The position numbers and the translations under genes are program-made. From a virus, in the IMG/VR virus record IMGVR_UViG_3300038427_000078: a stretch of 64,000 nt of DNA; one strand, given 5' to 3'. The notes beneath the pieces are model-generated. The model saw nothing but the letters and a program-made list of their open reading frames with translations. It had not been told where the DNA came from and searched no databases. Of the stretch, positions 3,612-11,073 are shown piece by piece. Position 1 is the stretch's first letter. Each line of letters opens with the position of its first letter.

Positions 3612-4019
3612 ATGGTATGTGCTACCTGTAAAGAAGAGAAGGACTTGGACGAGTTCCATGCTGGTGCTCGCGTGTGTAAAGGCTGCAAGAAGGATGCCGA
3701 TGCTCGCTCGTTTCAGAAGCATCGGGAGGCTCGTCTAGAAAAGCGCCGACAGGATCGCCTCGCAGCACGCGAATGGTTTGAGTCCTTGAAGGCAGGAAAG
3801 AAGTGTGCCGACTGTGATCTGGATCATCCTCCGTGGAGGATGGATTGGGATCACCTTCCAGGCACAGAAAAGCTCTTTGAGATAGCCGATGTCAGCCACA
3901 TGGCAACGGGAGAGAAGGGCAAGCGGAAGATACTGGACGAGATTGCCAAGTGCGAGCTTGTCTGTGCCAACTGTCATCGAGACAGAACGCACGACCGCCG
4001 ACGGGGAGTGGCCCTGTAA
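3612..4019 (+). CDS. HNH homing endonuclease
   Basis: CxxC pairs; MDWDH...EIAKCELVCANCH. Confidence 0.88.
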   Translation: MVCATCKEEKDLDEFHAGARVCKGCKKDADARSFQKHREARLEKRRQDRLAAREWFESLKAGKKCADCDLDHPPWRMDWDHLPGTEKLFEIADVSHMATGEKGKRKILDEIAKCELVCANCHRDRTHDRRRGVAL

Positions 4020-4044
4020 CTCGGTTCGACTCCGAGTGTTGGCT
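4013..4044 (+). pseudogene. tRNA-Thr 3' remnant
   Basis: cc-TGT-aa followed by T arm ctcgg-ttcgact-ccgag and acceptor 3' strand tgttggc-t. Confidence 0.65.
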
Positions 4045-4089
4045 TCCATGGCAGACGAGGAGGCAAGCCCTCTCTTGACTCTGCCGCCA

Positions 4090-4162
4090 GGGGGATTGGT
4101 GTAAACGGCAATCATGATCGGCTCCAACCCGATTGATCAGGGTTCGAATCCTTGATCCCCCG
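4090..4162 (+). tRNA. tRNA-Trp(CCA)
   Basis: gggggat/atccccc; atcgg-ct-CCA-ac-ccgat. Confidence 0.9.
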
Positions 4163-4260: not shown

Positions 4261-4297
4261 GGTGTCTTAGCTCAGATGGTTAGAGCGCTGCCCTGTC
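4261..4297 (+). pseudogene. 5' half of tRNA-Asp(GUC), truncated right after the anticodon
   Basis: ggtgtct-ta-gctc-agatggtta-gagc-g-ctgcc-ct-GTC, then unrelated sequence. Confidence 0.8.
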
Positions 4298-4347
4298 TAG
4301 TAGACCACTGGCCTTCAAGGGCGGTGGTATCGGCTAGGTAATAGCTG

Positions 4348-4764
4348 ATGGCAACTACCAAGGACAAGGGCGACCTCGCTGAGCTACGCATCGCATCAGA
4401 CTTGATGCGGCAAGGATACAAGGTAGCTATTCCCTTCGGTGACAATTGGGACTTCGACCTGATCCTGTACCGCGATGGGTTCGAGAGGGTCCAGGTCAAG
4501 TACGCTCAGTCAGACGGTGAGAAGGTCGAGGTCAAGGCGGTAAGCTACTCGACCAACAAAGGTCTGACCATCTCAGCGAAACAGTACACCGCTGCTGAGA
4601 TTGACTGGCTTGCGGTGTACGATGTGACCACCGACGAATGCTTCTACGTGCCAGCTAGCGAGCTTGGCGACGGGATGAGGATGGTGACGCTCAGGTATAA
4701 GCCTGCGCGTAACAACCAGACCAAGGGCATCCGGTGGACGAAGGACTATGGGTCCGTAGCGTAG
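4348..4764 (+). CDS. PD-(D/E)XK homing endonuclease (family usually associated with tRNA group I introns)
   Basis: KGDLAE...GYKVAIPFGDNWDFDLI...RVQVK...IDWLAVY motif set. Confidence 0.88.
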   Translation: MATTKDKGDLAELRIASDLMRQGYKVAIPFGDNWDFDLILYRDGFERVQVKYAQSDGEKVEVKAVSYSTNKGLTISAKQYTAAEIDWLAVYDVTTDECFYVPASELGDGMRMVTLRYKPARNNQTKGIRWTKDYGSVA

Positions 4765-4823
4765 TGGTCTAACGCGCCTCCCTGTCAAGGAGGAGAACGG
4801 GGGTTCGAATCCCCTCGGTCCCG
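4750..4823 (+). tRNA. tRNA-Asp(GUC)
   Basis: gggtccg/cggtccc; cctcc-ct-GTC-aa-ggagg; overlaps the stop codon of the upstream ORF. Confidence 0.93.
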
Positions 4824-4845
4824 CTCAACAACGAAGCGGAGAATC

Positions 4846-4992
4846 ATGAAGCTCAGTAAGCTCAGTAAGCTAAGTCGTACATCCGAATTGCTCCCGTATC
4901 TTGAATCCGTTGAGCATTACGCCAACGCTGCCGTATACCACGGCACCTTCGAGGGCGAACAGTTCACGTTGACCTTTACCTTCGGCCCTTGA
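4846..4992 (+). CDS. small hypothetical protein (MKLSKLSKLSR...)
   Basis: ggaga RBS, 48 codons, 9-nt tandem repeat aagctcagt. Confidence 0.45.
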   Translation: MKLSKLSKLSRTSELLPYLESVEHYANAAVYHGTFEGEQFTLTFTFGP

Positions 4993-5000
4993 CTCGTCGC

Positions 5001-5029
5001 TTGACTTCTAGTCGTGGACCGTGTAGACT
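5001..5029 (+). promoter_or_regulatory. sigma70/SigA-type promoter, leaderless transcript
   Basis: TTGACT-N17-TAGACT with ATG 7 nt downstream. Confidence 0.75.
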
Positions 5030-5036
5030 ACGGTCC

Positions 5037-5504
5037 ATGAACCTACTAAAGACACTTCCTGTCGTGCTGCTCGTAGCCCTTGCTGGATGCGGAGCAGTTA
5101 CCAAAGCACCTGCCAAAGCACCTGCCCCGCACCCTAGTCTCCCCAAGGTGGTCAAGGTCACGGCGCAACCGACCACGACGACACCGGAACCCAGGCCCAG
5201 GCCCAAGCCTAGACCTGCGGTGGTAGTTCCTGTGCCTACTCCTACGCCTACATACCCGACATGCGATGGCGGACCCGTTGAATGCGGGAAGGCATCGGCA
5301 GCACCGACACGGGAAGAAAGTCTGCAACAGCACTACCGCGAAACCGGAGGCTGCGGTGGGGAAGGAGAGGCTGAATGTCCCGCCCACGGAGAAGGCAGCG
5401 GAGAAAATAGCGTCAACAGCACGGGTGAATCGCGTGCCTGTGCAGAAGAACGTAGTGAATACACAAGTGGCGAGAGGTCTAGTCTCCGCGTTGGCTGTCG
5501 ATAA
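5037..5504 (+). CDS. lipoprotein with Pro/Thr-rich stalk
   Basis: MNLLKTLPVVLLVALAG-C lipobox. Confidence 0.75.
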   Translation: MNLLKTLPVVLLVALAGCGAVTKAPAKAPAPHPSLPKVVKVTAQPTTTTPEPRPRPKPRPAVVVPVPTPTPTYPTCDGGPVECGKASAAPTREESLQQHYRETGGCGGEGEAECPAHGEGSGENSVNSTGESRACAEERSEYTSGERSSLRVGCR

Positions 5505-5544
5505 GTCAAGGCGGAGGTCGCGGGTTCGAGTCCCGTCGTTGTCG
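5505..5544 (+). pseudogene. 3' half of a tRNA-Asp(GUC)
   Basis: GTC-aa-ggcgg-aggtc-gcggg-ttcgagt-cccgt-cgttgtc-g. Confidence 0.75.
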
Positions 5545-5557
5545 CTCGCAGTACAAC

Positions 5558-5629
5558 GCGCTGGTAGCTCATTGGCAGAGCAATCGGTTTACACCCGATG
5601 TGTATGGGGTTCGATTCCCTGGTGGCGCA
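5558..5629 (+). tRNA. tRNA-Val(UAC)
   Basis: atcgg-tt-TAC-ac-ccgat; one acceptor mismatch. Confidence 0.88.
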
Positions 5630-5676
5630 TAGATGTCAAGTAGCTCTGTAGGCGCAGGGGGGTGCGACATCTTTGA

Positions 5677-5749
5677 GGGCGATTAGCTCAGTTGGGAGAG
5701 CGCCGTCGCGACATGGCGGAAGTCACTGGTTCGAGTCCAGTATTGCCCA
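5677..5749 (+). tRNA. tRNA-Val(GAC)
   Basis: gggcgat/attgccc; ccgtc-gc-GAC-at-ggcgg. Confidence 0.88.
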
Positions 5750-5938
5750 CTCTCCTGTCACCTAATTGGTGGCAGGGAATGCAAACCCACGACCAGCGTA
5801 AGAAAGGATGGTGATCCAGAAATCTACCTTGTAGACAGATGGTCGCCGTCCACAGTTGGTCGGCACTAAGTCGTTGGGGGAGGGTGAGGGCCGCTGGCTC
5901 TTAGCCCTCCCTCCGAGGTTCTTCGGAGCCTCACCCAT

Positions 5939-6335
5939 GGGCCTTTCCCGGTAATCGATTGGGTAGGTTCGGCAGTATGTCATGCAGCGGTCGTCACACC
6001 TACCTGACAAAAGCCATAACTGGCAACGCAACAGACACGCTCGCAATCCCCGCATCTCTCTTCGAGGTTCGGGCTAGCGACGTACTCGCTGTAGCCTAAG
6101 AAGCTACAAGCCGGGACCAGCCGAGTATCCTGGGAACAGAAACCTCGGAGGGCAGTGAGCGCCATGCCCTTGACGTGCAGAGTACCGTTGTAGTTACACC
6201 GCAAGGTGTTGGTAGCACCCCGCGCGTTCCCGGACGTATAACCGGGTGGTGGAGGCGGGCCATGCCTGTCCCAAAGCTGCTAGAAGTGACGCCTGTACGA
6301 GACTCAAGACGGCAGTTCGACTCTGCCAAGGTCCA
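5939..6335 (+). ncRNA. ssrA: tmRNA
   Basis: acceptor gggcctt/aaggtcc-a with G3:U; T arm ggcag-ttcgact-ctgcc; ATAACT-GGC resume context; tag ORF 6022-6099 GNATDTLAIPASLFEVRASDVLAVA*. Confidence 0.92.
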
Positions 6336-6369
6336 CTAAAACAAGGTCCATCCGTGCTAGAATAGATGG

Positions 6370-6807
6370 ATGGGCAGAGAGCAAAGACGAGCAAAGCAAT
6401 TGGGTATGCCGCATGGCACAGCCATGCACCGCTTGCGTAAACGAGTGATGTTTTCACTAGCTCAGGAGTTGCACTTGGATCAGTGCATCGTGTGTAAGAG
6501 GATGATCGAAGATGCTGACGACCTTAGCATCGAGCACATCCAGCCGTGGGAGGGCCGAGACACGTCCCTGTTTTGGGACATCACTAACATCGCTTTCTCT
6601 CATCGCTGGTGCAACCAACCTCATACGCGACCGGGCAAGCCTCCGGTTCATGACCTCAAGCCCGACATGTGGTGGTGCTCCCACTGCGAACAAGAACTTC
6701 CGCTTGATCGATTCGGCCTCAAGACAGTGACAAGTGGAGCTAAACGACCACGAAACTACTGCAACAAATGCCGTACCGAACGTAAAGCAATGGGCCTCTC
6801 GGCCTAG
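6370..6807 (+). CDS. HNH homing endonuclease
   Basis: CIVC...SIEHIQPW...NIAFSHRWCN plus C-terminal Zn ribbon. Confidence 0.82.
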   Translation: MGREQRRAKQLGMPHGTAMHRLRKRVMFSLAQELHLDQCIVCKRMIEDADDLSIEHIQPWEGRDTSLFWDITNIAFSHRWCNQPHTRPGKPPVHDLKPDMWWCSHCEQELPLDRFGLKTVTSGAKRPRNYCNKCRTERKAMGLSA

Positions 6808-6812
6808 TCCAC

Positions 6813-6841
6813 TTGACAAGCCGGAGAAGACGTGCTAAGCT
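6813..6841 (+). promoter_or_regulatory. SigA-type promoter
   Basis: TTGACA-N17-TAAGCT, ATG at 6848. Confidence 0.7.
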
Positions 6842-6974
6842 CCCGGCATGGAACAAGACAAAAACGGAAACCTGATCTGCAACGTCTGTGGACAGGATTG
6901 GGCAAGCCAACACACCATCGGGGCAACTGCCTCCAACCTCCCAGGAAGCCAAGTCAACCAAAGGAAGGCAAGTG

Positions 6975-7277
6975 ATGGGCTACTACATCGAGACACCCCT
7001 CCCGCTCGCGAAGGCACTTCAACTCGAAGAGCTTCACGGTGCGGAGCCGTACTCGGGTACGTTCGAGGACGTACCGGAGGGCAAGGTCGTAGTCGCAGTG
7101 GTACAGAACGGTCTGTTCGACGCCGCTGGCATCTGCTACGACGAGAACGAGTTCAAGGCATTCACCGCTGACCCAAGCGACACCAGGCCGAAAGACCTGT
7201 TGACGCTGGACAAGGACACCGCCCTACGGCTGTGCCCGCACGCAGCGGAGGTACTTGGAGAGGACGTGGCTACCTGA
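6975..7277 (+). CDS. hypothetical protein
   Basis: RBS aaggaagg; GC3-biased codons. Confidence 0.7.
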   Translation: MGYYIETPLPLAKALQLEELHGAEPYSGTFEDVPEGKVVVAVVQNGLFDAAGICYDENEFKAFTADPSDTRPKDLLTLDKDTALRLCPHAAEVLGEDVAT

Positions 7278-7483
7278 TGCCCGTCCTTTTCTTCATCATC
7301 GCAGGCATCATCCTGATCGCCAACTCGGGCTGGTTCCACGGAGCAGACATCGTTGGCATCGTCCTGCTCGTCTTTGGCGGGCTTGGACTTGTCCTCTGGC
7401 TCGTCGCTGCGAAATTCGCACGGAGCATCATCAAAGAGGTCAAAGGACCAGGGACACCCCGGCATCCCCGGAGGTTCCGCTAA
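7277..7483 (+). CDS. small two-TM membrane protein
   Basis: two hydrophobic stretches and basic tail; TGATG coupling. Confidence 0.7.
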   Translation: MPVLFFIIAGIILIANSGWFHGADIVGIVLLVFGGLGLVLWLVAAKFARSIIKEVKGPGTPRHPRRFR

Positions 7484-7490
7484 GTTGTTC

Positions 7491-7563
7491 GCCCTTGTAG
7501 CTCAGAGGATAGAGCATCGGTTTCCTAAACCGTGTGTCGCGGGTTCGATTCCCTCCGGTGCCA
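7491..7563 (+). tRNA. tRNA-Arg(CCU), degenerate acceptor and T stems (possibly pseudo)
   Basis: cggt-tt-CCT-aa-accg; acceptor gcccttg/cggtgcc has 2 mismatches. Confidence 0.6.
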
Positions 7564-7579
7564 TGGTATACTGTTGGGT

Positions 7580-7921
7580 ATGAGTGATCAAGACCTAACA
7601 GAGCAGCAAGTAGTGGCTGCGGAGGCCGGTGTCGGAGACAGCATACAGGCCATCGCGGACCGCGCAGTCAAGGCCGTCGAGGTACTGGACTTGAGCGAGG
7701 GCGATGTTCTCGTAGTCAAGCTCGGCATCGATGACATGGGTGACGGACTCCCACCGTGGATTCCGGGACCAGCGGAGCTAGAGCAGGTGTCAGATGCCTT
7801 GACCGCGACAGTGCCAGAGGGCGTACGGGTGCTAGTTCACCACCTGGGAATCAACTTCCAGATCGTACGCGGCCTCGACACCAGTAACCCGGTCGTAGTC
7901 GAATCGCTGCCAACAGAGTAA
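7580..7921 (+). CDS. small protein paralogous to an internal portal-protein domain
   Basis: KLGIDDMGDGLPPWIPGPAELE...RVLVHHLG matches portal KLGIMDMGDGLPPWLPGPEELE...RVMVHHFG. Confidence 0.85.
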   Translation: MSDQDLTEQQVVAAEAGVGDSIQAIADRAVKAVEVLDLSEGDVLVVKLGIDDMGDGLPPWIPGPAELEQVSDALTATVPEGVRVLVHHLGINFQIVRGLDTSNPVVVESLPTE

Positions 7922-7924
7922 CAC

Positions 7925-7999
7925 GCGGGAATAGCTCAGCCAGGTTAGAGCACTTCTCTGATAAGGAAGGGGTCAGAGGTTCAAATCCTCTTTTCCGCA
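7925..7999 (+). tRNA. tRNA-Ile(GAU)
   Basis: gcgggaa/tttccgc; ct-GAT-aa. Confidence 0.93.
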
Positions 8000-8084
8000 T
8001 CGCAGGAAAATCGGTCCTGAAAAATTAGGGTCGGCGCTCAGAAAAATTTTGCGCCAACTTCTCAGGCGAGATTAGCCTAATTAC

Positions 8085-8159
8085 GCCCAAGTGACGGGAA
8101 TTGGCATACCTGGCAAGCTCAAACCTTGTCGTTTGTGGGTTCGACTCCCACTTTGGGCA
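8085..8159 (+). tRNA. tRNA-Leu(CAA), short variable loop
   Basis: gcccaag/tttgggc; gcaag-ct-CAA-ac-cttgt. Confidence 0.9.
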
Positions 8160-8191
8160 CTTTTTGTCGAACCTTCTGACACGTAATATAC

Positions 8192-8524
8192 GTGGCATAC
8201 AAGGATCCTCAGAAGCAGAAAGAAGCACAGCATCGGTCATATCTGCGTAACAAAGAGATAATCCTCAGGCGCAGTTCTGATCGCATCAAAGAGCTTCGAC
8301 GCAAAGTGCGAGAGTACAAGGAGGAGCGTGGTTGTAGCGCGTGCGGGTACAACAAATACGGTGGGGCTATCGATGCTCATCACCCAAACGGCAAGGATAA
8401 CCAAGAACAGTGCATTGCCCGTTTGTGCAAACGGGCCTTTCCGTGGGAGACAATCCTTGCGGAGCTTGAGAAGTGCATTCTTCTCTGTTCCAACTGTCAT
8501 CGCGAGCACCATCGCGGTGAGTAG
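8192..8524 (+). CDS. HNH homing endonuclease
   Basis: CSACGY...IDAHH...ELEKCILLCSNCH. Confidence 0.88.
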   Translation: MAYKDPQKQKEAQHRSYLRNKEIILRRSSDRIKELRRKVREYKEERGCSACGYNKYGGAIDAHHPNGKDNQEQCIARLCKRAFPWETILAELEKCILLCSNCHREHHRGE

Positions 8525-8546
8525 CATAACGCGCTATACTGGAAAT

Positions 8547-8723
8547 ATGGGACCAGACAAATGTGGCGCAGAAGTCGGACTTTTGGCAAGATGCCAAAGA
8601 CCGGCGAATCACGACGGAGAGCACTCAGGGCCGATTTTCGTCCCTCAGTGGATTACCTATTTGGGCGAGGGTGACGAGATTCCTCGCAGTCAGTACCAAT
8701 CGTGCGGAGTGGAGCAACGGTAG
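8547..8723 (+). CDS. small hypothetical protein; stop codon lies inside tRNA-fMet
   Basis: TATACT 6 nt before ATG (leaderless); C..C..H..H motif. Confidence 0.55.
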   Translation: MGPDKCGAEVGLLARCQRPANHDGEHSGPIFVPQWITYLGEGDEIPRSQYQSCGVEQR

Positions 8724-8774
8724 CTCGCAAGGCCCATAACCTTGAGGTAGGAAGTTCGACTCTTCCCTCCGCTA
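8703..8774 (+). tRNA. tRNA-Met(CAU), initiator-like
   Basis: unpaired 1:72 (T:T); tggagc D stem; caagg-cc-CAT-aa-ccttg. Confidence 0.85.
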
Positions 8775-8786
8775 TAGCAGTACAAT

Positions 8787-8858
8787 TCCGGGTTCGTCTA
8801 ATCGGCAGGATGTCTGGTTCTGAGCCAGATGGTCAGGGTTCGAATCCTTGACCCGGAG
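8787..8858 (+). tRNA. tRNA-Gln(CUG)
   Basis: tccgggt/acccgga; tctgg-tt-CTG-ag-ccaga. Confidence 0.92.
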
Positions 8859-8920
8859 CTTTGGCAGTAGAAGGCGAACAGCGCTTAGAGCGGGTTCGTG
8901 GGATCCCGCGCTGTCAACAT

Positions 8921-8991
8921 TGGGGGTTCGTTCAACGGCAGGACAGCGGGCCTTGAACCCGCGAATCGGGGTTCGAATCCCTGACCCCCAG
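8921..8991 (+). tRNA. tRNA-Gln(UUG)
   Basis: tgggggt/accccca; gcggg-cc-TTG-aa-cccgc. Confidence 0.92.
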
Positions 8992-9073
8992 CTAGCAAGG
9001 CAAGGAGCCGGTAGGCGTGTGCTACCGGACCAGAACGAGGCGTCACTGCACGCCTACCTTGCCGCAATCTTTC

Positions 9074-9157
9074 GCCTCTCTGGTTGGAATGGTAGACACA
9101 GCGGGCCTAAACCCCGCCGATCTTCGGATCGTCCGAGTTCGACTCTCGGGAGAGGCA
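9074..9157 (+). tRNA. tRNA-Leu(UAA)
   Basis: gcctctc/gagaggc; gcggg-cc-TAA-ac-cccgc; long variable arm. Confidence 0.9.
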
Positions 9158-9159
9158 TC

Positions 9160-9234
9160 GCGTCGGAAGCTCAAGTGCGAGCGCCGCCCATTTGGGGGCG
9201 GAGGTCGAGGGCGATTAGCTCCCCTCTCGGCGCA
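9160..9234 (+). ncRNA. tRNA-like cloverleaf with non-canonical loops
   Basis: gcgtcgg/tcggcgc, gctc/gagc, ccgcc/ggcgg, gaggg/ccctc stems; no TTCGA loop; 8-nt anticodon loop. Confidence 0.6.
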
Positions 9235-9238
9235 ACAT

Positions 9239-9312
9239 GGTGGTCGTCATCTAATGGACTAGGATTCGAGGTTGTGAACCTCGCCATGCGGGTTCGATTC
9301 CCGTCGATCACC
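9239..9312 (+). tRNA. tRNA-His(GUG) with encoded G-1
   Basis: g-gtggtcg/cgatcac-c; cgagg-tt-GTG-aa-cctcg. Confidence 0.92.
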
Positions 9313-9324
9313 CTGGCAGCACAA

Positions 9325-9399
9325 GCGCCACTAGCTCAGTCTGGTTAGAGCAACTGTCTTATCAACAGCGTGTCCGGGGTTCAAATCCTCGGTGGCGCA
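9325..9399 (+). tRNA. tRNA with UAU anticodon (Ile AUA reader)
   Basis: gcgccac/gtggcgc; ctgt-ct-TAT-ca-acag. Confidence 0.8.
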
Positions 9400-9405
9400 C
9401 TTCAT

Positions 9406-9479
9406 GGCCCGTGGGTCTTATGGCAAGGATTCCGCGTTCTCAGCGCGTGAGATGATGGGTTCGAATCCCATACGGGCTA
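9406..9479 (+). tRNA. tRNA-Glu(CUC)
   Basis: ggcccgt/acgggct; cgcg-tt-CTC-ag-cgcg. Confidence 0.88.
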
Positions 9480-9554
9480 CTCTGTAGGTACCATTCGAAT
9501 GGCTCTGCCTGCGGAACGCTTGACTTCATCGCACCCGTGCGATATGATGTCGCT

Positions 9555-10208
9555 ATGTCGAGAGCAAGAGACTGGACCCACCCAATCACCGGCGAGCTAC
9601 ACTGGTTCGACGTACACGGCATGGCTGGGGTCCGGGAACTCGAAGTTCTCGCAGACGCCGAAGACATCGACTTGGACGACCTGTTCGACGCGAACCTCTC
9701 TTCTAAGGAGGTTCTGTTCCGGCTCAACAAGCTCAGTGAGCTAATCCCGGAGGCGGGCCTCAACAAGCTCAAGAAACGTCAGACACAGGGCGAGCCTGAG
9801 ACTTGCCGCATCTGCCCGCTACTCGGTCGGGAGTGCGAAGGTCGAATGACCAAACATCACTTCGTGCCGCGTTGGATCATGTTGGAACTGGCAGACTACG
9901 AGGTCTATGCACCGCGTAGGCTCTGCACAGTCCCGGCGTGCGCCGGGAGCCACCGTTGGCTCCACATGCGGACCGAGGAGGGATCGAAATCCATCGCTCC
10001 TTACCTCGACAAGAATGAGAAGGCACTAGCGCACCATCTCATCGGGACACTCCGTCAGGAGCGCCCCAGGATCTACGCCCTCCTCGCGGGCGGGGACAAG
10101 AACAGCTACGAGTGGCAACTTGTTCAGGATTGGCGGCGAGGACTGTTTGATGTCAGGGGGGAAGGGAAAGATCCCTTCCCTCGCTGGCAGCTACGAAACT
10201 CTCTGTAG
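9555..10208 (+). CDS. HNH-like protein
   Basis: CRIC...TKHHFVPR...VPACAGSH; upstream TTGACT-N17-TATGAT promoter; stop codon inside tRNA-Arg. Confidence 0.65.
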   Translation: MSRARDWTHPITGELHWFDVHGMAGVRELEVLADAEDIDLDDLFDANLSSKEVLFRLNKLSELIPEAGLNKLKKRQTQGEPETCRICPLLGRECEGRMTKHHFVPRWIMLELADYEVYAPRRLCTVPACAGSHRWLHMRTEEGSKSIAPYLDKNEKALAHHLIGTLRQERPRIYALLAGGDKNSYEWQLVQDWRRGLFDVRGEGKDPFPRWQLRNSL

Positions 10209-10271
10209 CTCAGTGGATAGAGCGTCCGGTTGCGATCCGGGAGGTCGGCGGTTCGAGTCCGTCCAGGGAGG
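10199..10271 (+). tRNA. tRNA-Arg(GCG)
   Basis: ctctctg/cagggag; tccgg-tt-GCG-at-ccggg. Confidence 0.9.
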
Positions 10272-10486: not shown

Positions 10487-11073
10487 TTCGTATCAGGCGG
10501 TTGCTGCGCTTGAAAGACAGCGTAGAGGAAGTTCGGGGCATGCTGGCAGGGGAAACCTTGTCATCGGCTCAACTACACCGAGTGACACCGGCCCAAAGGA
10601 GGTACGCCCTCGTTGGTGTTCCGGCGCATGCAACTCCAAGTAGAGAACCCTACGGCGAAAGCTATGGGCATATCGGGTTGGAGGCTTAGATGGATGATCG
10701 CCACCAGTTACGACTCAGAGGAGAGACATGAACTACTGTGAAGCGATGGCCTACGTCGCGGGGCTGTTGGAGGGCGAGGGATGCTTCGATTTCGTAGCTC
10801 CCGGCCATCCAAGGATCCGCATGGAGACAACAGATGAAGATGTGGCATACTGGCTTCAACACTTGGTTGAAGGTGGGACAATCACTAATCGTCAGGGCAA
10901 ACGCAGTAATCACAGCGATTCGTTTGTGTGGCAAACGAGCAGGGCTGATGTGGTCAAGAAGGTCTTGACGGCAATCTATCCTTGGACAAGTGCTCGCAGG
11001 CGAGTAAAGATTGATGAACTCATGTCTGCTCTCTGAGCCGTAGTTGGTACAGAACCCCGGCTATCGATACGAA
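10487..11073 (+). ncRNA. rnpB: RNase P RNA (reduced S-domain, no P18) with an ORF inserted in P19
   Basis: P1 ttcgtatc/gatacgaa; P2 ggcggtt/gatcgcc; P3; GAGGAAGTTCGGGGC at 10525; TAGATGGATG; ACAGAACCCCGGCTA at 11049; P4 forms 8 bp with a bulged U. Confidence 0.88.
10728..11036 (+). CDS. single-motif LAGLIDADG homing endonuclease inside the RNase P RNA
   Basis: YVAGLLEGEGCF motif; RBS gaggag. Confidence 0.9.
   Translation: MNYCEAMAYVAGLLEGEGCFDFVAPGHPRIRMETTDEDVAYWLQHLVEGGTITNRQGKRSNHSDSFVWQTSRADVVKKVLTAIYPWTSARRRVKIDELMSAL

Follow-up and report, generated by a model that had tools for sequence, protein, structure and literature searches.

Phage open reading frames that end inside the next tRNA gene: tolerated packing or a processing-dependent switch?

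Can a phage gene keep its stop codon inside the tRNA gene that follows it, and does such an arrangement switch the gene off? The question is raised by the tRNA island of the IMG/VR virus record IMGVR_UViG_3300038427_000078, a stretch of 64,000 nucleotides (nt) that was analysed whole and is called the window here. Ribonuclease P (RNase P) cuts a precursor at position +1 of the transfer RNA (tRNA), and messenger RNAs without a stop codon are rescued by transfer-messenger RNA (tmRNA). A sequence-only reading of the window listed three open reading frames (ORFs) that terminate within the next mature tRNA. It proposed that tRNA maturation removes their stops, so that the products are tagged and degraded. 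The present analysis finds that all three overlaps exist and that two of the ORFs are genuine genes. The overlaps are on balance a by-product of the way in which the island is built, and were more likely tolerated than selected.

Geometry of the overlaps and status of the three ORFs

The island contains 28 tRNAs and a tmRNA between positions 656 and 11769 according to ARAGORN. Rfam agrees on the tRNAs and adds one at 7491-7563. The junctions are formed by the following features.

4348-4764, + strand: ORF1, a 138-amino-acid (aa) PD-(D/E)XK nuclease (Pfam PDDEXK_5, coding score)
4750-4824, + strand: tRNA-Asp(GTC), intact (ARAGORN; Rfam 68.4 bits)
8547-8723, + strand: ORF2, 58 codons, a doubtful gene (open frame from ATG into tRNA-Met)
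8703-8774, + strand: tRNA-Met(CAT) (ARAGORN; Rfam 55.3 bits)
9555-10208, + strand: ORF3, 217 aa, Cys/His-rich and HNH-like (homologues, ratio of nonsynonymous to synonymous substitution rates (dN/dS), conserved place in the array)
10199-10271, + strand: tRNA-Arg(GCG) (ARAGORN; Rfam 61.2 bits)

ORF1 overlaps tRNA-Asp by 15 nt, and its TAG (4762-4764) occupies positions 13-15 of the tRNA when the sequence is read against the ARAGORN and Rfam models. The overlap of ORF2 with tRNA-Met is 21 nt, with TAG 8721-8723 at positions 19-21, while that of ORF3 with tRNA-Arg(GCG) is 10 nt, with TAG 10206-10208 forming U8-A9-G10 (positions 8-10). Direct reading, ARAGORN, and Rfam thus agree with the earlier listing that all three frames stop inside the next tRNA. 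The stop lies 3′ of the RNase P site in every case. The predicted cut at +1 follows codon 134 in ORF1 and codon 52 in ORF2, and is within codon 215 of ORF3. For ORF1 and ORF3, a family-backed gene stands upstream of a valid tRNA (55-68 bits) on the same strand, which is not the case for ORF2. Contigs of four independent peat or wetland runs have no sequence difference at any of the three junctions, and this agreement shows that the overlaps are no assembly artefact. The population is clonal in these four DNA runs and has no informative variants.

The 5′ parts of the tRNA genes are rich in stops. TAG is present at +8 to +10 in 14 of the 30 tRNA-type genes of the window, and other frames often stop at +15 or +21 to +24, so that any frame entering a tRNA ends within a few codons. 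Five frames of at least 58 codons enter a tRNA, compared to a mean of 1.05 per window with shuffled spacers. About one such frame is expected by chance, and ORF2 on its own is therefore unremarkable. Frames of at least 100 codons number three, compared to a mean of 0.13 (P(≥2) = 0.005, shuffled spacers). ORF1 and ORF3 are genuine genes and not chance frames.

ORF1 matches Pfam PDDEXK_5 (PF11645) at E 2e-33 over profile positions 2-136 of 138, which is the full length, and its frame scores best for coding. It also matches PDB 2OST, which is I-Ssp6803I, at a phmmer E of 5.6e-4 and with the D...D...QVK core aligned. Judged by these matches, ORF1 is a full-length PF11645 PD-(D/E)XK endonuclease related to I-Ssp6803I. 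Its homologues of 138-140 aa usually end 3 residues past a conserved DY. In ORF1 the residues after DY are GSVA, the last four codons, and these are encoded within tRNA-Asp.

ORF1 is part of a 1.2-kb insertion, which interrupts the resident tRNA-Asp at the anticodon and supplies a different one. The insertion is not present in relatives, whose Trp-to-Asp spacers comprise only ~60-115 nt, and the cassette tRNA-Asp at 4750-4824 differs in sequence from the resident tRNA-Asp of these relatives. Both halves of the broken gene are still recognisable.

4261-4297, + strand: 5′ half, broken off at the anticodon, of the resident tRNA-Asp (nearly the same sequence as in the related loci L004, L001, and L002)
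5505-5545, + strand: 3′ half of that tRNA-Asp; its acceptor strand has decayed (aligns to the relatives' tRNA-Asp 3′ half)

The cassette (within 4261-5545) comprises the nuclease, the intact tRNA-Asp, a small ORF, and a lipoprotein-like ORF at 5037-5504. The latter has its own TTGACT-17-TAGACT promoter, and its TAA stop abuts the GTC of the old tRNA-Asp 3′ half.

I-Ssp6803I is a PD-(D/E)XK homing endonuclease and belongs to a group I intron in tRNA-fMet. ORF1 resembles it (PF11645, 2OST) as a full-length family member that is found in a tRNA gene with a break in the anticodon loop. In contrast, no group I intron family is detected above Rfam gathering thresholds anywhere in the 64-kb window. 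ORF1 lacks the residence in a tRNA group I intron that marks the I-Ssp6803I type, and its cassette carries a replacement tRNA-Asp that contains the ORF1 stop. The idea that the overlap locks a homing endonuclease gene and a tRNA together is plausible for ORF1 alone, which travels with tRNA-Asp in one insertion, but adjacency by itself suffices for such a linkage.

ORF3 has 73 homologues in the protein search and more than 100 family members in all (105 in a count of C-terminal tails). A scan of viral contigs with the single ORF3 protein gave no match, whereas alignment-based scans did find homologues. In about 60 metagenomic phage loci the gene is located between tRNA-Glu(CTC) and a tRNA-Arg, and the contigs with homologues carry syntenic tRNA arrays. 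The ORF3 frame scores best for coding. The residues C84, C94, H101, H102, C124, C129, H133, and H137 are invariant among homologues. The dN/dS is 0.1-0.26 with saturated dS. ORF3 is thus under strong purifying selection, and a functional protein is made, also in the overlapped lineages.

The nature of this protein is less clear from the searches. ORF3 has no family in Pfam or PHROG. Its AlphaFold2 model has a mean predicted local distance difference test score (pLDDT) of 86.6, and Foldseek finds nothing for it in the PDB at E ≤0.001 (the HNH leads have E >2). A PDB profile search gave only noise, and hhalign against the HNH genes of the window reached a probability of 0.6, which does not confirm HNH. 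A structure comparison (VIA) gave Z ≤3.5, with the HNH domains of McrA, IscB, Cas9, GVE2, and P1 Ref recurring on residues 79-157, and the Atlas feature matches are 0.90 to HNH clusters. With leads that are weak but recurrent, ORF3 is probably a divergent HNH nuclease that resides permanently in tRNA arrays. The earlier description of the products as mostly nuclease-like stands for ORF1 and ORF3, and falls for ORF2 as a doubtful gene.

The ORF3 family is unnamed, has an invariant MSRAR start, and is without a Pfam match. Distant homologues with their own stop have C-termini that resemble ssrA tags (...LLAVA, ...LRAVA, ...LAAVA, and ...ALAALA) in 9 of 105 members compared to 1 of 157 background ORFs, the motif being defined post hoc and the counts uncorrected for kinship. 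These tails occur in L010, L013, L045, L047, L049, L050, L052, L054, and protein P0072.

ORF2 is of a different kind. No homologue was found in the homologue search, Pfam and PHROG give no match, and its coding score is no better than that of another frame. The block of an HNH gene and ORF2 is an insertion not present in relatives, in which the Leu-to-Met spacers are only ~60-115 nt long. The ATG is preceded by one short element.

8535-8540, + strand: TATACT, a -10-like box 6 nt upstream of the ORF2 ATG (motif enrichment at ORF starts)

This box is likely the promoter of the block from tRNA-Met to tRNA-Glu, with a predicted transcript that starts with 5′-AUG. ORF2 is probably the 5′ leader of that precursor, beginning with AUG, and the leader is possibly translated.

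Junction position among relatives

The offset of a stop is given here as negative when it lies inside the tRNA (a 10-nt overlap is -10) and as positive for the number of nt before tRNA +1. The 13 loci examined form ORF3's own clade and are the members with a C-terminal FPRW tail.

Offset -10: the window, L016, L001, and L002 (tRNA); L004, L017, and L063 (tRNA-like cloverleaf with encoded CCA)
Offset -22: L062
Offset -23: L065 and L066
Offset -1: L064 and L067
Offset +4: L061

In L064 and L067 the stop is TA|G, astride the predicted RNase P cut. L030, which carries only part of the gene and is not placed in the tree, also has its stop at -10 and may be an independent case. In the tree, a single origin of the overlap, basal to a clade of 21 members, accounts for the data together with one return to an own stop (a subclade of 9 members nested within it) and a single shift to +4. 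More distant ORF3 clades have the stop 12-70 nt ahead of the tRNA. The drift and the reversion within the clade indicate that the overlapped state is old and harmless, that its position is not fixed, and that it is reversible.

Close packing is not confined to ORF3. In relatives, the small ORF before tRNA-Phe ends at -10, +3, -10, 0, and +9, the ORF before tRNA-Ile(TAT) at -1, +9, and +7, the PTH2 gene before tRNA-Gly at +4 and +8, and a 126-aa ORF at -15. The array ORFs of relatives, including non-nuclease ones, thus end between -15 and +9 of the next tRNA. The window has a further example.

7580-7921, + strand: portal-fragment-like ORF with its stop 3 nt (+3) ahead of tRNA-Ile (7925) (PHROG portal 8e-9, coding score, TATACT-N7-ATG start)

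Apart from the tRNAs, the region has no counterpart among INPHARED phages; the phage itself is from peat metagenomes.

A tRNA-like cloverleaf with encoded CCA is located between ORF3 and tRNA-Arg in L004 (8237-8334), L017 (937-1036), L063 (3154-3237), and L066 (3186-3264), and also in L065 and L067. In L004 and L017 it has an enlarged anticodon loop with a GC hairpin followed by a U run. Neither ARAGORN nor Rfam calls these elements, and their minimum free energy folds are cloverleaves with z of -1.3 to -3.5. The PTH2-type gene, encoding a peptidyl-tRNA hydrolase, is present in the arrays of L004 (9571-9996), L065 (3254-3691), and L066 (4658-5068). It ends 4-8 nt before tRNA-Gly(TCC) in L004 and L066, and none was seen in the island of the window.

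Leaderless transcripts and the fate of the stop

The island ORFs have promoter elements directly ahead of their start codons, of which that of ORF3 is the most complete.

9520-9548, + strand: sigma-70-type promoter TTGACT-17-TATGAT, 6 nt before the ORF3 ATG (promoter scan, 10 of 12 matches)

At the equivalent ORF3 start, relatives have TGTATACT-N6-ATG. TATACT-N5-8-RTG occurs at four sites in the window, and all four are at ORF starts compared to 0.89 expected by chance. The TATACT sites are at 7567, 8535, 51124, and 55197. Other island ORFs have TATGAT, TAGAAT, TAGACT, or GGTAAT 5-7 nt ahead of the ATG, and more distant relatives have Shine-Dalgarno sequences in place of leaderless-type starts. 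The closeness of these -10 boxes to the ATG suggests leaderless messages and possibly a host of the actinobacterial type. The promoter and terminator scan predicts no terminator and no internal promoter near the junctions, and there is no space for a terminator between ORF and tRNA.

These elements are consistent with the following course of events. An ORF that starts 5-7 nt past its -10 box would be read from a leaderless message. Lying on one transcript with the downstream tRNAs, it would be the translated 5′ leader of a tRNA precursor. Since such a leader needs neither a 3′ untranslated region (UTR) nor a terminator, ORFs are packed up to the tRNA. When an ORF loses its own stop, its frame ends a few codons on because the 5′ parts of tRNAs hold stops (UAG at 8-10; UAG or UAA in the D-loop). 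Normal termination would then be restricted to transcripts still uncut by RNase P. Once cut, the leader would be a stop-less message, to be cleared by trans-translation with host or phage tmRNA. Such rescue probably sets a general ceiling on the yield per transcript and would not amount to a purpose-built off-switch for nucleases. The earlier premise that tRNA maturation removes the stop is sound on textbook grounds, as a cut at +1 must part each ORF from its stop, and it is a prediction for this locus.

The sequence-only reading held it possible that the phage's own RNase P and tmRNA take part, and the window has a tmRNA and a candidate for the RNase P RNA.

5939-6336, + strand: phage tmRNA with tag ...DVLAVA and acceptor pair G3:U70 (ARAGORN, sequence reading)
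10487-11073, + strand: putative RNase P RNA of reduced size, split by a LAGLIDADG ORF (10728-11036) (the 5′ part and ACAGAACCCCGGCTA align with the syntenic RNA of relatives)

The acceptor of the tmRNA is GGGCCTT/AAGGTCC, in which the third pair is G:T. Rfam makes no tmRNA or RNase P RNA call on the window, also when short stretches are searched with E values up to 10. The RNA at 5939-6336 is recognised as tmRNA by ARAGORN, its acceptor, its tag, and its homology to the copies of relatives. These have 73% column identity with it and match RF00023 at E 1e-11 to 5e-6. The RNase P-like RNA of the window carries GAGGAAGTTCGGGGC and ACAGAACCCCGGCTA and was aligned to the RNA of L004, where 9173-9435 matches RNaseP_bact_a (RF00010) at 40.2 bits and E 3.6e-9, below the gathering score of 100. 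The lineage carries both a tmRNA and a putative reduced RNase P RNA. The tmRNA is common to the group in general, and a full-length copy is also present in at least three of five distant relatives whose ORF3 keeps its own stop.

In the array of this phage group, the reduced RNase P RNA sits just ahead of tRNA-Thr(TGT). In L002 (2693-3421), and likewise in L003, the tRNA array is directly preceded by a gene for a ClpP-family protease (PF00574), which neighbours ribonucleotide reductase and is remote from the head genes. This protease may bear on the fate of tmRNA-tagged proteins.

Tolerated packing is placed above a selected switch because the junction drifts, non-nuclease genes are packed alike, and the overlap has no link to the presence of tmRNA. 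Several points weigh against it. The overlap is long-lived, with branches of dS >1, and the RNase P cut would destroy the stop in 12 of the 13 clade members, which could reflect selection. At 2-3 of 30 tRNAs, such overlaps are much more frequent than on average in bacteria (250 per 115,660). The lineage has tmRNA and a putative RNase P RNA, and one relative (L002) has its ClpP-family gene beside the array. Some distant ORF3 homologues have the ssrA-like tails (9 of 105 compared to 1 of 157, post hoc and uncorrected for kinship).

The equipment of the lineage, the keeping of a cut-destroyed stop over saturated dS, and the ssrA-like tails also speak for a selected off-switch, as do the nuclease nature of ORF1 and, probably, that of ORF3. 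In such a switch RNase P would remove the stop, the phage tmRNA would rescue the ribosomes, and the tagged nucleases would be degraded, the dose being set by the ribosomes that finish before processing. A dedicated switch of this kind, as the sequence-only reading had proposed, is unlikely. The stop wanders among orthologues and has reverted in the 9-member subclade and in L061, and the non-nuclease ORFs are packed against the same border. The tmRNA is present with or without the ORF3 overlap. Purifying selection on ORF3 means that the protein cannot simply be turned off, and one of the three cited ORFs, ORF2, is probably no gene. An own stop 0-9 nt ahead of the cut is nearly as exposed, so the overlap adds little. 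Less likely again is its most far-reaching form, in which the islands of this phage group are tRNA-punctuated leaderless mini-operons. RNase P, partly the phage's own, would there deliberately make nuclease messages non-stop and the phage tmRNA would tag late protein, with tRNA processing as the timer of a short nuclease pulse per transcript.

The coupling may also run in the opposite direction, for which the chance appears slim. Ribosomes on the leader, travelling up to the tRNA border, would shield it from premature Rho-type termination or from nucleases until the tRNAs have been made, and a ribosome ending at +10 would keep that tRNA for a short time from folding and from being cut by RNase P. 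The range of -15 to +9 among varied ORFs of relatives fits such a role. The ORF promoters are apparently the sole promoters ahead of the tRNA blocks, and ORF2 looks like a leader held open, unlike a protein gene. This account is an inference throughout, the distant clades keep gaps of 12-70 nt, and a 58-codon open frame is within chance. That the ORFs are untranslated and the overlaps mere artefacts of listing open frames suits ORF2 (no homologue, ambiguous coding score, chance length) and the open frames 3889-4104 and 7255-7500, which run into tRNA-Trp and the Rfam-only tRNA at 7491 and are clearly non-coding by coding score, but it is hardly credible for ORF1 with its full-length PDDEXK_5 match at 2e-33 or for ORF3 with its >100 homologues and dN/dS of 0.1-0.26, both of which score highest for coding in their own frame and have leaderless-type promoters.

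Known overlaps and further features of the island

Overlaps of this geometry have been surveyed in bacteria. Among 115,660 t(m)RNA genes, 250 overlap an upstream coding sequence (CDS) and are regarded as candidate, though rare, sources of non-stop mRNA (Hudson, Lau & Williams 2014, Front Microbiol 5:421, PMC4131195). Such cases make up about 1 in 15,000 mRNAs of bacterial chromosomes (PMC4131195). An overlap of smpB and ssrA in Carsonella is discussed in the same paper (PMC4131195), and is given here as that paper cites it from Mao et al. 2009. The logic of these overlaps is identical to that of the window: the CDS stops within a downstream tRNA, and a stop-less tmRNA substrate is predicted, as a prediction in both. 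The idea that tRNA processing yields non-stop mRNA was already published in 2014. The window differs in that 2-3 of the 30 tRNAs of one phage island are involved, the ORFs look leaderless, the phage has a tmRNA and a putative RNase P RNA, and one junction can be traced through a phage clade. New here are the evolutionary series for one gene family, the architecture of leaderless leaders, and the co-occurrence with a putative phage RNase P RNA.

The tRNA punctuation of mitochondrial transcripts, said to have been described by Ojala, Montoya and Attardi in 1981, is a second parallel. The ORFs of the island likewise abut tRNAs without a UTR, tRNA excision would set the 3′ end of the mRNA, and stops are found at or across the cut (L064 and L067). 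In mitochondria incomplete stops are completed by polyadenylation, whereas the stops of the island ORFs are mostly complete and lie within the tRNA or directly ahead of it.

The arfA mRNA, which is cut by RNase III and is obligately non-stop (mentioned in PMC4131195), shares the tie between expression and an RNA-processing step that removes the stop. In contrast, ArfA is a ribosome-rescue factor that is active only when truncated. ORF1 and ORF3 are of nuclease type, their conserved parts end before the cut, and there is no hint of activation by truncation. ORF2 was also considered as an ArfA-like protein and was dropped by eye, being not small and basic in appearance and without relatives.

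If packing is all there is, gene calling and annotation should allow for genuine phage genes that end in tRNAs, which several annotation rules forbid. The 217-aa family is a natural series (-23 to +70 nt) for how near to an RNase P site a stop may be. If the processing-coupled model were true, these ORFs would be the first concrete class of substrates for a phage tmRNA, and tRNA maturation would act as a translational timer. To our knowledge, what phage tmRNA does has been unclear ever since its discovery in mycobacteriophages and phage G.

Some minor features of the arrays remain. The open frame at 5266-5643, which runs through tRNA-Val, was set aside with a coding score no better than that of other frames. 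The tRNA at 7491-7563 scores 44.2 bits in Rfam and is missed by ARAGORN. Its contig depth is very high in the DNA runs, and it probably resembles a host or widespread tRNA. A 96-nt tRNA at 2745-2840 of the window, for which the anticodon was not determined, is located between two tRNA-Pro genes. In L001, the tRNA at 5241-5312 has a four-base anticodon call (tcca) in place of the tRNA-Trp(CCA) of relatives.

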